64,000 nucleotides of DNA from a virus (IMGVR_UViG_3300047325_000150); one strand, 5' to 3'. Numbered from the stretch's first letter, positions 57,310 to 63,271 are shown. Notes: a model not told the origin generated them from the sequence alone. Numbers and translations are program-made.

Positions 57310-57387
57310 GTCCTTGTAGCGCAATTGGTAGGAGGCAACTGACTTAAGATCAGAACAGTGCGAGTTCGAATCTCGCCAAGGACACCA
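57310..57387 (+). tRNA. tRNA with Leu-reading anticodon TAA, short variable arm, weak D stem; CCA encoded
   Basis: Acceptor GTCCTTG/CAAGGAC, A73. T arm GCGAG-TTCGAAT-CTCGC. Anticodon stem CTGA/TCAG with loop CTTAAGA. D stem only GC/GC plus two mismatches. Confidence 0.5.
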
Positions 57388-57396
57388 AATATATAT

Positions 57397-57473
57397 GCCA
57401 CTGTAGTGCAACGGTAGGAGACAGCAGTTTTAGAAACTGTACAGTGCTGGTTCGAATCCAGTCAGTGGCACCA
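57397..57473 (+). tRNA. tRNA with Leu-reading anticodon TAG, short variable arm; CCA encoded
   Basis: Acceptor GCCACTG/CAGTGGC, A73. T arm GCTGG-TTCGAAT-CCAGT. Anticodon arm GCAGT-TTTAGAA-ACTGT. Confidence 0.55.
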
Positions 57474-58190
57474 AATATATGCCCATATATATAGATTTTA
57501 CGATAATATTAATGTTAGAAAATTTTGTAGTAATTATAGCAAAGTTGTGCTGGGAGCTTAAAGATGAATTTTTGGTAATTTCTAGATAGAAATGCATCTG
57601 GTATTTTTATAACAATTATTATTAACGGTGAAAAAGAAAAAGAGTTTACTTTTGAAGACATTCGAACTGCACAAGATGCAGTTCAAAAAAGCTTTCCCAA
57701 TATTGATTATAATTGGGATGCAGACGAAGAAGGTTTAAATTATATACTTGATTTTCTTTATGCAGGTGATGAATACCATGCAGAAGTGCAAGCAACAAAC
57801 GTTGTTGAGTATAAATTAGATCATCGTAAAATCTAAATAGACTGCGGAGGGGTGACGAGTGTTCCTGTAAAGGAATGGGTCACAGTTTTGTATAAGACGT
57901 ATTTTTAACAAAACCTTGCTATTCTGTAGGGTAGAAGTTGGTTAGTTAAAGATTAAAGTAGGATTTGATCCTTCCATCTTATACATTAAAATTAATGGGC
58001 CATTAGTGCTAATAGTAAAACACTGGTTTTGCAATCCGGAGTCAGCGGGGCGGTACCGCTATGGTCCATAAAATTTTAGGTAAATTACGTTCACCAGCAT
58101 TCCAAAGTAAAATTCGAGTTTTTATGGGGCATGGGCAGGATTCAAACAGTGCAACGTCGGTGCAAATCCGTCCTGCGACGCCAATATAAA

Positions 58191-58266
58191 GCCTTGTTAG
58201 CCGAATGGTTAAGGCAACTCACTCGTAATGAGTAGATTGGGAGTTCGATTCTCTCACAAGGCACCA
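58191..58266 (+). tRNA. tRNA-Thr (CGT), CCA encoded
   Basis: G1-C72 and C2-G71 acceptor GCCTTGT/ACAAGGC. Anticodon arm ACTCA-CTCGTAA-TGAGT. T arm GGGAG-TTCGATT-CTCTC. Confidence 0.8.
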
Positions 58267-58277
58267 ATAAAAATTTT

Positions 58278-58358
58278 GCTCGTGTAGGCTATTTGGTATC
58301 GCCGGTGAACTTAAAATTCATGTCGTTTTTGCTGGTTCGACTCCAGTCACGAGCACCA
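58278..58358 (+). tRNA. tRNA with Leu-reading anticodon TAA and a 9-nt unpaired variable region; CCA encoded
   Basis: Acceptor GCTCGTG/CACGAGC, A73. Anticodon arm GTGAA-CTTAAAA-TTCAT. T arm GCTGG-TTCGACT-CCAGT. Confidence 0.55.
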
Positions 58359-58365
58359 CAGTAAT

Positions 58366-58444
58366 GCCCAAGTATGCAAATTGGTAAAGCAGCAATTCTC
58401 AAAAAGTTGTGATTTTGACGGTTCGAGTCCGTCGTTGGGCACCA
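58366..58444 (+). tRNA. tRNA with Leu-reading anticodon CAA, 7-nt variable region; CCA encoded
   Basis: Acceptor GCCCAAG/GTTGGGC (one G-G mismatch at 7:66), A73. Anticodon arm CAATT-CTCAAAA-AGTTG. T arm GACGG-TTCGAGT-CCGTC. Confidence 0.55.
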
Positions 58445-58449
58445 AGTTT

Positions 58450-58565
58450 AAAGGATCTTTACAGCATATAATTTGCCTTCCAAGCCGAGAGTGCGGGTTC
58501 GATTCCCGCTTTCCCTACAATGAGGGGAAATAGTTTAATGGTAGAACACGTAAAAAGTAGATCCT
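58450..58565 (+). other. permuted/split tRNA-like locus 1 (3' half followed by its complementary 5' half)
   Basis: Order: AAAGGATCT, 34 nt, T arm GCGGG-TTCGATT-CCCGC, acceptor-3' TTTCCCT, A, CAA, tga, acceptor-5' GGGGAAA, TA, D arm GTTT-AATGGTA-GAAC, then AGATCCT. Confidence 0.45.
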
Positions 58566-58689
58566 GTTTTTTGATATGGTATAGACGTAACTCAGAGAAA
58601 GAGTTGACGCTCAGAAGCAGTGTCGATGGTTAAAGTCCTTCCATCTATGGACATGTTATGAAAAGAAAAAGTTGAGTTGCTCTCAACAT

Positions 58690-58760
58690 TGGGGAATTCG
58701 TATAATGGTATTACGGTAGCTTTGCAAGCTACTCACAGCGGTCCGATTCCGCTATTCTCC
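58690..58760 (+). tRNA. tRNA-Ala (TGC), no encoded CCA
   Basis: Acceptor GGGGAAT/ATTCTCC with the G3-U70 Ala identity pair. Anticodon arm GTAGC-TTTGCAA-GCTAC. T arm AGCGG-TCCGATT-CCGCT. Confidence 0.8.
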
Positions 58761-58998
58761 CCTAATTTTATAAAATGATCAATTCAGCATTAAACAATGA
58801 TGGATAAATTTTATTGCTCAAACGAAAACGACATTCTTTCCTATATAGTTTTGATTCATGAAATAAATTCAATGAACGACATTGTATATCACATCTATTT
58901 TGATTTCTATATTTTACTAAACCCAGGAAATCCTTGCAAGATTTTAGCTTGATCGGTTTGAGTCCGATATGTTCCATTATCTATTTTGTAGGCTTTGT

Positions 58999-59077
58999 CA
59001 GCCATTGGGGAAGTCTGGTCGTTCCCGCCTGTTTTGGAAACAGGAGATTTACGTTGGTTCAAATCCAACATGGCTGA
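58999..59077 (+). tRNA. tRNA-Pro (TGG), no encoded CCA
   Basis: C1-G72 acceptor CAGCCAT/ATGGCTG. D stem GGGA/TCCC with an 11-nt D loop. Anticodon arm CCTGT-TTTGGAA-ACAGG. T arm GTTGG-TTCAAAT-CCAAC. Confidence 0.7.
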
Positions 59078-61330: not shown

Positions 61331-61411
61331 TGGATTATAATTTTGATTTTCAAAAACATATCAAAACTATCAAATTAGACATAAACGATGATATACAATT
61401 TGAGTTAACTT

Positions 61412-61624
61412 ATGAATAAAATATCTTGGAAAGATTTGAAGATTGGTGATTATGTATCTATAGAAATTTTATCCTATAAAACATACTATGCTAAAGTAAT
61501 TGACATATCATCTAACAATATCAGAGTTAAATTTGCATCTGGTAAGGTAGTGGATTATCACCCGGTGGGGTGGGCGGGCCGCATCAAAGCTACCTTACTA
61601 TGCTACAGTAGTTCAAATACTTGA
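61412..61624 (+). CDS. small hypothetical protein, paralog of 61145..61330
   Basis: As above. Confidence 0.35.
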   Translation: MNKISWKDLKIGDYVSIEILSYKTYYAKVIDISSNNIRVKFASGKVVDYHPVGWAGRIKATLLCYSSSNT

Positions 61625-61762
61625 TTTAAAAATTATTTTTGATTTCTATTTAAATGGTAAACATGTAGGAAACGCAGATTATGCATTTGATGAAGATACT
61701 ACATTCGAAACTACATTATTAGATATGGACGATGTTCAGTTTCGATTAATGATTTCTTAATT

Positions 61763-61837
61763 GCTCCTGTCGTATAGTGGCCATTACCTGGCTTTGGTAT
61801 AGCCAGTACCACAGTTCGATTCTGTGCGGGAGCACCA
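61763..61837 (+). tRNA. tRNA-Thr (GGT), CCA encoded
   Basis: G1-C72 and C2-G71 acceptor GCTCCTG/CGGGAGC. Anticodon arm TGGCT-TTGGTAT-AGCCA. T arm CACAG-TTCGATT-CTGTG. Confidence 0.75.
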
Positions 61838-61949
61838 ATATTATGCCAGTTTGGCTGTCTGAAACTAGACGTGTAATATCACATCTTCCTTTCATACGGG
61901 AAGAGTACCCGGGGAGGTACCGGGGTCTAGTACCAAATTTTTTAAAGTT

Positions 61950-62025
61950 TGCGGGTTAGAGAAGTGGTCATCTCACCAGGTTCATATCCTGGGAATCGGC
62001 GATTCGAATTCGTCACCCGCTACCA
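61950..62025 (+). tRNA. tRNA-Met (CAT); candidate initiator
   Basis: Acceptor with a U1-U72 mismatch. A11:U24 in D stem GAGA/TCTC. Anticodon arm CCAGG-TTCATAT-CCTGG. T arm GGCGA-TTCGAAT-TCGTC. A73 and CCA. Confidence 0.65.
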
Positions 62026-62027
62026 AT

Positions 62028-62115
62028 AAAGGATCTATTCAGCATATAAATACATAAACAGAAATCGTTGGTTCGATTCCAACACAACATGCAAATGTTG
62101 TTGGTGTAGTGGTAG
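62028..62115 (+). other. permuted/split tRNA-like locus 3
   Basis: Order: AAAGGATCT, about 30 nt containing TATAAATA, T arm GTTGG-TTCGATT-CCAAC, acceptor-3' ACAACAT, G, CAA, acceptor-5' ATGTTGT, TG, D arm, then AGATCCT. Confidence 0.45.
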
Positions 62116-62209
62116 CACGTCCGTCAAAAGATCCTGTTAGAACTAATAGTAGTATGGTGAAATTGGTATTTTATTAAATTACAAATTTATAGTTAAATAT
62201 ACATGAATA

Positions 62210-62800
62210 TTGTTATTTGGTATAAATACAAATATGAAATTAAGTGAGTATGCAAAATTAAACTCTATCACATATAAAACTGCTTGGTTACATTTTAAAG
62301 CTGGGCTGATACCAAATGCAATTAAATTAAAAACAGGTACTATCGTCATTCAAGAAATACCAAAATTACAAGAAAAAATTGCTCTTTATAGTAGAGTTAG
62401 TTCTTCTGAAAATAAATCAAATGCAGAAGCTCAATTAGATAGATTACGAATATACGCAATTGCTAAAGGATATCAAATTAATAAAGAGGTAATTGAAATA
62501 GCATCTGGATTAAATGATGCAAGACCGAAATTAATTTTATTATTACAAGATAAGTCAATTACAAAAATTATAGTTGAACATAAAGATCGATTAACTCGAT
62601 TTGGATTTAATTATATTAATGTTCTATTGGAAAATTCAAATAGATCAATTGAAGTGATAAATGAATCACTTGATAATGATGATATCATTGCTGACTTCAT
62701 ATCAATAATTACTAGTTTTTGTGCTAGAATATACGGTAGACGTAGATCAAAACGAAAAACAGAACTATTACTTAAAGAACTAGAAAATGATCTGAAGTAG
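62210..62800 (+). mobile_element. tnpA: IS607-family-like serine recombinase TnpA (MerR-like HTH plus resolvase catalytic domain)
   Basis: N-terminal HTH (LSEYAKLNSITYKTAWLHFKAGLIP). Catalytic-Ser motif ALYSRVSSSENK. LDRLRIYA, small resolvase-domain layout. Confidence 0.6.
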
Positions 62801-62812
62801 TAAAATTCGTTT

Positions 62813-63190
62813 GAAATATGTGAATCAAGTTAAACTTGACAAAACATTCCAATTATTTAATGATAAAACAAATGAAATAATATCAAATTTAATCAATGAC
62901 TTATTATATAATCATATCAATATACCAGCTTTATTACCAAAAACAATAACAGATCAATATACGGCGCACGAATAAATCAATTATTAGCTAAAGAAGCAAG
63001 CGCAAATGCAAGATCAATACGAAATAAAATAAAGAAAATAGGCAAAACAAATAATTTACAAAAATACCAAGAAGAACTACTTAATAAATTCAATAATAAA
63101 ACACTTAAAGTCAATTGGAATGGAAATTTAAATCTAGATAGTCGATTTGTGTCAATTGAAAAAGGAAATAACTCATTAATTAGTCAACAT
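62813..63190 (+). pseudogene. frameshifted/truncated TnpB-like (OrfB) remnant
   Basis: Two consecutive frames read KYVNQVKLDKTFQLF...TAHE and ...LAKEASANARSIRNKIKKIGKTNN...VNWNGNLNLDSRFVSIEKGNNS, resembling a TnpB N-terminal region. It runs into the tRNA at 63195. Confidence 0.35.
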
Positions 63191-63194
63191 AAAT

Positions 63195-63271
63195 GCACTT
63201 GTAGCCCAACGGCAGGAGGCAACTGATTCAAAACCAGTACAGTGTCAGTTCGAATCTGACCAAGTGCACCA
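63195..63271 (+). tRNA. tRNA with Leu-reading anticodon CAA, short variable arm; paralog of the tRNA at 57310
   Basis: Acceptor GCACTTG/CAAGTGC, A73 and CCA. T arm GTCAG-TTCGAAT-CTGAC. Anticodon stem CTGA/CCAG region with loop TTCAAAA. D stem GCC/GGC. Confidence 0.55.

Follow-up and report, generated by a model that had tools for sequence, protein, structure and literature searches.

The 64,000-nucleotide (nt) stretch of DNA from the virus IMGVR_UViG_3300047325_000150, referred to here in its whole length as the window, carries five tRNA genes with leucine anticodons, and three of them, starting at positions 57310, 57397 and 63195, are assigned by sequence to a conserved family of type I tRNA-Leu that is distinguished by a short variable loop. 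These three represent an old and widely spread lineage found in the tRNA arrays of phages and in the chromosomes of Actinomycetota. All five genes probably specify leucine-decoding type I tRNAs that are charged by a bacterial-type leucyl-tRNA synthetase (LeuRS) through the discriminator base A73 together with elements of the tRNA core. There is one earlier description of a bacterial type I tRNA-Leu, which treats it as peculiar to Streptomyces and makes no mention of phages (PMC6614811), and a review of 2023 presents tRNA-Leu as long-armed everywhere except in animal mitochondria (PMC9976931). In the literature searched, which is not the whole literature, no earlier description of short-arm tRNA-Leu in phages was found, and the term "type I tRNALeu" was met only in Fan et al. 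Genes of this sort have already been present in annotated phage genomes for years, and the window adds members to a known, under-described kind of molecule rather than a new kind.

The genes were called with ARAGORN and checked against the Rfam covariance model RF00005, the gathering score of which is 29 bits. All five are on the plus strand: the family members tRNA-Leu(UAA) at 57310-57387, tRNA-Leu(UAG) at 57397-57473 and tRNA-Leu(CAA) at 63195-63271 score 53.8, 53.6 and 53.8 bits on RF00005, respectively, and the two divergent short-arm tRNAs, with the anticodon UAA at 58278-58358 and CAA at 58366-58444, score 49.2 and 43.0 bits. The alignments run over model positions 1-71 of 71 and hold at positions 34-36, in each of the five genes, the triplet that ARAGORN reads as the anticodon. 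The five leucine anticodons named in the initial annotation (TAA twice, TAG once, CAA twice) were recovered by both programs, and the covariance check on the anticodon register revealed no shift. The genes are 77-81 nt long including the encoded CCA, and A73 is present in 5/5. The anticodon loops of the three family members, in the order of their positions, are CUUAAGA (with an unusual G37), UUUAGAA and UUCAAAA, and each of the three has the variable loop ACAGU and ends in A73-CCA. The variable regions of 58278 and 58366 are GUCGUUUUU (9 nt) and UGAUUUU (7 nt, or 6 nt according to ARAGORN, which draws a 6-bp anticodon stem). No stem is possible in the 5-9 nt of any of these regions, and none of the genes has the variable arm of more than 10 nt, forming a stem-loop, that marks type II tRNAs. 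The D stem consists of two Watson-Crick pairs and a G12.G23 mismatch in 57310 and 57397 and of 3 bp in 58278, 58366 and 63195, while the D loops of all five are 10-11 nt long; the T loop UUCGANU and G18G19 are found in 5/5. Thus A73 with the encoded CCA, the short unpaired variable regions and the short D stems, all claimed from first inspection of the sequence, are borne out in every gene. No long-arm tRNA-Leu (>81 nt) was found within the 64-kb window.

The family is recognised by a Leu-type D arm (3-bp stem, A14 A15 ... G18 G19), the 5-nt variable loop ACAGU and A73. In the three window members the D arm (C13, A14, A15, G18G19, ...AGGAGRC) is accompanied by U8 and A73, and its common motif is TGTAGYNCAA(N)YGGYAGGAGRCA. 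An exact scan located this motif in 87 IMG/VR stretches, and ARAGORN applied to these loci identified 97 tRNAs that carry it, of which 96 are 74-78 nt long and all have leucine anticodons (tag 36, taa 27, caa 15, gag 14, cag 3, aag 2). A second, independent pattern (GGYAGGAGRCA, 17 nt, ACAGYG, 3 nt, GTTC), which leaves the 5' part of the D arm free, was scanned over 185,579 bacterial and archaeal genomes and gave at least 120 matches; the 120 listed are all tRNA-Leu of 74-80 nt, mostly from Actinomycetota, with the anticodons tag 80, caa 19, cag 13, taa 4 and gag 4. Among these listed matches, the gene is the sole tRNA in 8 kb at 73 loci and lies in a dense tRNA array at about 25, the ACAGY signature being common in Actinomycetota chromosomes, including those of Streptomyces. 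The initial annotation had regarded the gene pair at 57310 and 63195 as clear paralogs with an odd D region; the paralogy stands, with 77% identity between the two, and the D region proves to be a conserved hallmark of the family. Likewise, the short variable loop ascribed to a class I scaffold was found, but the scaffold is not plain class I, because its D arm matches that of long-arm tRNA-Leu.

U8, A14, A15, G18G19, U48 and A73 hardly vary within the family. Of the 160 short tRNA-Leu of the IMG/VR loci, 106 have the variable loop ACAGU and most others NCAGU, U8, A14, A15 and U48 occur in 156/160 and A73 in 160/160, and the listed genome matches, rich in Actinomycetota, keep the same conserved positions as the phage set. 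In an alignment of 60 non-redundant IMG/VR members, from which the window sequences were left out, 95.8% of cells are paired, 18/20 pairs have changes on both sides, the observed covariation score was reached by 0/500 shuffles, and in slid controls pairing falls to 35-44%. This covariation supports the short-arm cloverleaf of the family. A covariance model built from the same alignment (R1), again without the window sequences, gives 88.0 bits to 57310, 86.4 to 63195 and 82.6 to 57397, the best non-Leu tRNA of the window reaching 54.5 bits. Over 90 sources the R1 scores look bimodal: generic tRNAs stay under about 60 bits, and most family members, those of phage wV8 among them, exceed about 62. 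When the anticodon was masked, 15/15 nearest neighbours were type I tRNA-Leu for each of 57310, 57397 and 63195.

The best non-Leu match to R1, at the mentioned 54.5 bits, is a tRNA-Thr(CGU) at 58191-58266 on the plus strand, which has a 3-bp D stem and a Leu-like D loop, and of whose anticodon-masked nearest neighbours 11/15 are type I tRNA-Leu, in a comparison set that is enriched in Leu. An origin in the Leu scaffold, with a shift of the anticodon, is one possibility; an effect of the Leu-enriched set is another.

The rarity of short-arm tRNA-Leu implied by the initial annotation was overstated, as hundreds of phage records already annotate such genes as tRNA-Leu. In blastn searches, two different queries gave 197 and 189 GenBank phage records with members of the family, most of the listed matches being annotated as tRNA-Leu; the hosts of those phages are Mycobacterium, Streptomyces, Escherichia, Salmonella, Shigella, Bacillus, Pseudomonas, Acinetobacter and Synechococcus, and the phage groups include Felixounavirus, Bxz1-like mycobacteriophages and Streptomyces phages. 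A non-Leu tRNA of the window, used as a blastn probe for an unbiased census of Leu types, found only 32 GenBank phage records, and this census failed. Three phages may serve as examples. The Escherichia coli phage wV8 (Felixounavirus) has three tRNA-Leu of 77-79 nt, which score 83.4, 67.1 and 63.5 bits on R1, next to Ser and Tyr genes of 88-93 nt; the Bxz1-like mycobacteriophage Cali (Bixzunavirus) has three adjacent tRNA-Leu of 74-76 nt beside an 85-nt tRNA-Ser; and the Streptomyces phage Comrade has one type I tRNA-Leu of 75 nt and one of type II. In all three the genes lie inside phage tRNA arrays with long-armed Ser and Tyr genes, have the same architecture and, mostly, belong to the same family as the window trio, and their records label them plain tRNA-Leu and say nothing of their structure. 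None of these phages is related to that of the window: megablast of the window's array returned no near relatives among GenBank phages, in which the identity to its rIIA protein is at best ≤38%.

The loss of the arm is selective. In the same IMG/VR loci, tRNA-Ser is 84-95 nt long (n=61), tRNA-Tyr is 84-97 nt in 18/19 and type II tRNA-Leu is 82-87 nt, and among the long-arm tRNAs of these loci the arm is lost in tRNA-Leu only. Bacterial tyrosyl-tRNA synthetase contacts and relies on the long arm. Seryl-tRNA synthetase also relies mainly on it (PMC9976931), so only tRNA-Leu, whose synthetase does not need the arm, could lose it. Many of the near-complete arrays of 26-30 tRNAs have type I as their sole tRNA-Leu, and a conserved block Gln(ttg)-Leu-Leu-...-Leu-Leu-Trp-Arg is common in them; both Leu types are carried in 17/85 loci. 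Six IMG/VR loci, with 26-30 tRNAs each, have a common order that includes Cys-Gln(ttg)-Leu-Leu-(x)-Leu-Leu-Trp-Arg, with all or most of their Leu genes of type I, and these arrays are reminiscent of the "tRNA array units" of Actinomycetota (PMC5966550). As a separate observation, cluster J mycobacteriophages, which are temperate, match type I tRNA-Leu in part (Thibault, JN201525, 49465-49515; Courthouse, NC_023690, 51034-51077), the matches spanning only tRNA positions 25-75 or 32-75 and lying mostly in unannotated DNA. This would be the pattern of a phage attachment site (attP) core that copies the 3' part of a host tRNA gene; if so, a type I tRNA-Leu gene would exist in mycobacterial chromosomes and serve there for integration.

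The leucine identity of the family is argued from its invariant core, namely U8-A14, A15-U48, G18G19, the D loop AAYYGGYAG(G), the 3-bp D stem, the unpaired 13.22 and A73. These elements are reported to define leucine identity for the E. coli LeuRS, to which the anticodon and the long arm are dispensable (PMC9976931; PMC6614811), and minimalist arm-less E. coli tRNA-Leu constructs were still charged (Larkin et al. 2002, as summarised in PMC9976931). The canonical type II tRNA-Leu of E. coli has in common with the window genes A73, U8-A14, A15-U48, G18G19, the 3-bp D stem and the unpaired 13.22, and the type II D loop AAUUGGYAG(G) is also shared, whereas the long variable stem-loop is absent from them; the tRNA-Leu(UAG) of phage T5, of 85 nt, has kept the long arm, unlike the window genes. 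All six leucine anticodons, and no other, occur on the scaffold in the 217 instances listed (97 from IMG/VR and 120 from genomes), as would be expected if the body of the molecule, not the anticodon, specifies leucine. The same exclusiveness makes it hardly credible that the genes encode mis-acylating tRNAs bearing an amino acid other than leucine, by which the phage would recode its leucine codons: G3:U70, G73 and the long arm are missing, the open reading frames (ORFs) of the window read normally with the standard code, and the isotype of 58278 and 58366, which is not fixable from sequence, is the only point in favour of mis-acylation, there being nothing specific otherwise. An identity switch to Ala or Ser was rejected on the lack of the same G3:U70, G73 and long arm, and an alternative genetic code or suppressor tRNAs were rejected on account of the sense-codon anticodons and the normal ORFs.

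The closest biochemical precedent is the type I tRNA-Leu(CAA) of Streptomyces coelicolor (Fan et al. 2019, Nucleic Acids Res., PMC6614811), which is like the window trio in its 5-nt loop, U8-A14, G18G19 and A73. It was leucylated in vitro by the S. coelicolor LeuRS with a kcat/Km of 6.25 versus 14.2 s-1 uM-1 for the type II isoacceptor, A14 being of importance for charging, and the shortest loop with good charging in S. coelicolor was of 5 nt including position 48 (PMC6614811); the ACAGU loop has exactly this minimal length. There are also differences. The loop is ACAGC in S. coelicolor and ACAGU in the window trio; the S. coelicolor gene is chromosomal and single-copy, whereas the window has five phage-borne copies with three anticodons, two of them outside the ACAGY family; A73 is dispensable in S. 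coelicolor (PMC6614811), while it is invariant in the phage family (160/160); and position 48 is U, facing A15, in the phage family but C in the tRNA of S. coelicolor, a difference the relevance of which is a matter of speculation. Taken with the invariant U8, A14, A15, G18G19, U48 and A73 and with the Leu-only anticodons of the scaffold, the charging of this relative lends support to the earlier proposal of tRNA-Leu variants whose charging depends on A73 and tertiary elements.

In mitochondrial tRNAs the D and T loops are typically degenerate. The five window tRNAs differ from them in having canonical elbows of G18G19 and UUCGAAU, and a reduced elbow was found in none of the five. Animal mitochondrial tRNA-Leu is like the window genes in its short variable loop and in the identity elements A73 and A14 (PMC9976931). 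The human mitochondrial tRNA-Leu(UUR) is described as a floppy structure that is recognised differently (PMC9976931), and human mitochondrial tRNA-Leu is not charged by the S. coelicolor LeuRS (PMC6614811).

The preferred reading may be put as follows. The phage would express the five tRNAs from its array for reading UUA and UUG codons (anticodons UAA and CAA) and CUN codons (UAG), and they would be charged with leucine, most likely by a bacterial-type LeuRS that is presumably the host's, before being used in translation. Such an enzyme would recognise A73 and the core consisting of U8-A14, the A15-U48 Levitt pair, G18G19 and the Leu-type D-loop architecture, and would need neither the anticodon nor the long arm. 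The TTA, TTG and CTA codons make up 37%, 18% and 12% of the leucine codons in the window and together 67%, which are read directly by the anticodons present. The suggestion of the initial annotation that additional UUA/UUG/CUA decoders would make sense is compatible with this usage but weak.

Several observations weigh against this reading. The D stems of 57310 and 57397 have only two Watson-Crick pairs, although the G12 variant recurs in 8/60 seeds, and G37 after A36 in 57310 is rare in the family (2/43 UAA members). The LeuRS enzymes of E. coli and S. purpurogeneiscleroticus are reported not to charge the type I tRNA-Leu of S. coelicolor (PMC6614811), so that acceptance of type I substrates is not to be presumed for all bacterial LeuRS. 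The window is 64 kb of a genome that probably exceeds 300 kb, and genes for a LeuRS or for type II tRNA-Leu could lie outside it. For 58278 and 58366, the R1 scores of 48.8 and 49.7 bits are within the range of non-Leu tRNAs, U15 stands in place of A15 in 58278, close relatives or orthologues of either gene were not found by exact-pattern scans of IMG/VR and similarity searches, and nearest-neighbour typing does not discriminate, the comparison set being enriched in type I Leu.

These two genes lie, on sequence criteria, outside the ACAGY family. Their acceptor, anticodon and T arms are sound, with canonical T loops, a Leu-like 9-nt D-loop core and A36A37A38, and both keep A14, G18G19 and A73 and are without the GGAG motif. 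In 58278, with its 9-nt unpaired U-rich variable loop, a 3-bp D stem, A37A38 and A73-CCA, the D loop is AUUUGGUAU (A14, U15, G18G19), while 58366 has a 7-nt unpaired U-rich variable loop, a G7.G66 mismatch, A73-CCA and the D loop AAUUGGUAA, which is that of E. coli tRNA-Leu except at position 21. The best relatives of both are short tRNA-Leu at about 70-73% identity, those of 58366 being short tRNA-Leu(CAA) at about 73%, among them a gene of phage wV8. The exact D-arm pattern of 58278 gave seven IMG/VR matches, none inside a tRNA, which were rejected as chance; that of 58366 gave three, two of which fall in 95-96-nt long-arm tRNAs with an unclear register, and was rejected as well.

The initial annotation had also named pseudogenes, decoys and mis-acylation among the possible explanations. 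For the three family members, covariation and wide conservation speak against these; for 58278 and 58366 they retain some probability. That some of the five, especially these two, are decaying pseudogenes or tRNA-like decoys or processing signals is considered rather unlikely. It would fit their lack of close relatives and generic R1 scores, the U-rich loops of 7 and 9 nt, G7.G66 in 58366 and U15 in 58278, as well as the several clearly non-canonical tRNA-like modules of the same array. However, both genes retain their arms, T loops, G18G19, A73 and CCA and pass RF00005 by 14-20 bits, A36A37A38 is what is expected of decoders of UUR (UUA/UUG) codons, and loops of 6-7 nt are also seen in short tRNA-Leu of wV8 and of several IMG/VR arrays. 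A leucine identity of 58278 and 58366 is drawn only from their anticodon, A73 and D loop, and it is plausible that they act as decoders.

The tRNA array, as delimited with ARAGORN, Rfam and Pfam, extends over 56714-63360 on the plus strand and consists of 17 tRNA genes, all on that strand, among small ORFs, tRNA-like modules and a serine recombinase gene, and, like the conserved block of the IMG/VR arrays, it starts with Gln(ttg)-Leu(taa)-Leu(tag). The window has a G+C content of about 35% and encodes rIIA, rIIB and an anti-restriction protein, along with a dense set of translation and tRNA genes (28459-29928, 31972-33786, 33791-34618, 36455-37090, 48242-49157, 49678-50853 and 53647-54507) that comprises a Thg1-like tRNA-His guanylyltransferase, a full-length aspartyl-tRNA synthetase (AspRS), with a YqeY-domain ORF ahead of its gene, a CCA-adding enzyme and a SpoU-family methyltransferase. 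To the same set belong a nucleotidyltransferase, a protein like QueD, one like dCMP deaminase, and a full-length, RpoD-like sigma-70 factor with a non-essential region. The homologues of the sigma factor, of 50-58% identity, sit on phage-like contigs of up to 325-493 kb, and the window thus most likely comes from a jumbo phage that is extensively equipped for tRNA supply and repair. The AspRS and the Thg1-like protein had no match in IMG/VR, the latter gave a single irrelevant match of 1.2 kb among metagenome contigs, and the exact-protein search matched only a 3.6-kb contig. The number of sites in a promoter and terminator scan was about that expected by chance, and the scan was not used. Within the array there are mobile-element-like genes, namely a 267-aa ORF at 59198-60001 on the minus strand (phrog_23051) and the serine recombinase/resolvase at 62210-62800 (plus strand); AT-rich ORF fragments lie between the latter and the tRNA-Leu at 63195, and two small tandem paralogous ORFs lie at about 61146-61330 and 61413-61590 (plus strand).

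This context bears on who charges the tRNAs. With a full-length AspRS already in the window and a jumbo-phage lineage, suggested by the mentioned sigma-factor homologues, the phage might encode a LeuRS outside the window with which the short-arm tRNAs form a partly private pair. No LeuRS gene occurs in the 64 kb examined, and such a pair is very unlikely.

The heavy tRNA supply and repair set (CCA-adding enzyme, Thg1-like protein, AspRS, SpoU-family enzyme) is, furthermore, a point in favour of a role in counter-defence, in which the short-arm scaffold would escape nucleases or toxins keyed on long-arm tRNAs or on host tRNA-Leu. The nuclease might also be encoded by the phage itself; in either case, leucine decoding would persist once the host tRNA-Leu has been destroyed. 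The explanation is compatible with the preferred reading, the tRNAs still being charged with leucine. It is favoured by the virulent E. coli phages that carry type I tRNA-Leu, while a search of 5,426 complete E. coli genomes (E<=1e-4) gave no relative of the wV8 type I tRNA-Leu(UAG), so that the scaffold appears to be phage-only in E. coli; by the documented phage tRNAs that evade host nucleases (PMC10264068); and by the preference of the mammalian SLFN11 for type II tRNAs. The nuclease-escaping tRNAs (mycobacteriophage variants, PMC10264068; T5 versus retron/PtuAB) are likewise isoacceptors unlike the host's and located in large arrays, but they have changes in the anticodon loop and a known cognate nuclease, whereas in the window the whole arm is gone and no nuclease is implicated. 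No bacterial nuclease specific for long-arm tRNA-Leu was met in the literature read, the bacterial Schlafen studied cleaves broadly and at the T loop, many Actinomycetota have the scaffold as an ordinary chromosomal gene in single copy, for which no defence need be invoked, and the two kinds of tRNA-Leu occur together at the 17/85 loci and in phage Comrade. Counter-defence is, on balance, unlikely.

In its widest form, which is given the same low credence, the loss of the arm would be an adaptive trait spread by phages, by which a Leu set becomes invisible to nucleases or toxins, of host or phage origin, keyed on the long arm and is still charged by LeuRS; no direct evidence for such an adaptation was found in this analysis. 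If it were true, phages could take over leucine decoding during infection, the orphan genes, with their U-rich loops of 7 and 9 nt, would represent additional escape variants, and the E. coli LeuRS would have to charge the short tRNA-Leu of the Felix O1 type, against the published statement that it is type II-only.

Between the tRNA genes of the array there are three permuted tRNA-like modules, at 58452-58574, 59093-59204 and 62028-62142 on the plus strand. An outer stem AGGAUC ... GAUCCU with the conserved ACAGCA and AGAUCCUGUU is followed by a T-arm hairpin, then by a 7-bp acceptor stem closed by a loop and by a D-arm hairpin, which amounts to a circular permutation and is the layout of the bacterial Y RNA-like YrlA. 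The Rfam YrlA model matches 58461-58570 in full length with 30.8 bits against a gathering score of 69, and in minimum free energy (MFE) folds the outer stem encloses three hairpins, with 59093-59204 and 62028-62142 as the clearest cases. No Ro/Rsr gene was found in the ORFs scanned, no search having been made beyond them; comparable "tRNA-like stable RNAs" are annotated in the T5 array. At 60344-60460 (plus strand) a normal tRNA-Asn (60368-60440) is enclosed by an outer stem of the same type, AGGAUGAUUACAGCA ... AUCAUCCUGUUU, and its flanks are paired in the MFE fold; together with the permuted modules, this suggests a shared signal for processing or protein binding. Weak tRNA-like matches occur between the genes at 57997-58068, 58581-58649 and 57172-57243 (plus strand; RF00005 30.5 and 25.2 bits, R1 22 bits), and G+C-richer non-coding stretches at about 57840-57990, 60140-60340, 60560-60750, 60915-61100 and 61840-61945.

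For annotation, the window yields three bona fide type I tRNA-Leu genes and two short-arm tRNAs with leucine anticodons of uncertain standing. The short-arm tRNA-Leu lineage is not a curiosity of Streptomyces; it is common in the tRNA arrays of phages of very different hosts and in Actinomycetota. With core positions that do not vary across hundreds of sequences, the lineage provides a natural data set for the identity rules of LeuRS. It raises the question of whether the E. coli LeuRS charges tRNAs of the Felix O1 type, and it has a bearing on why phages carry tRNAs of their own.

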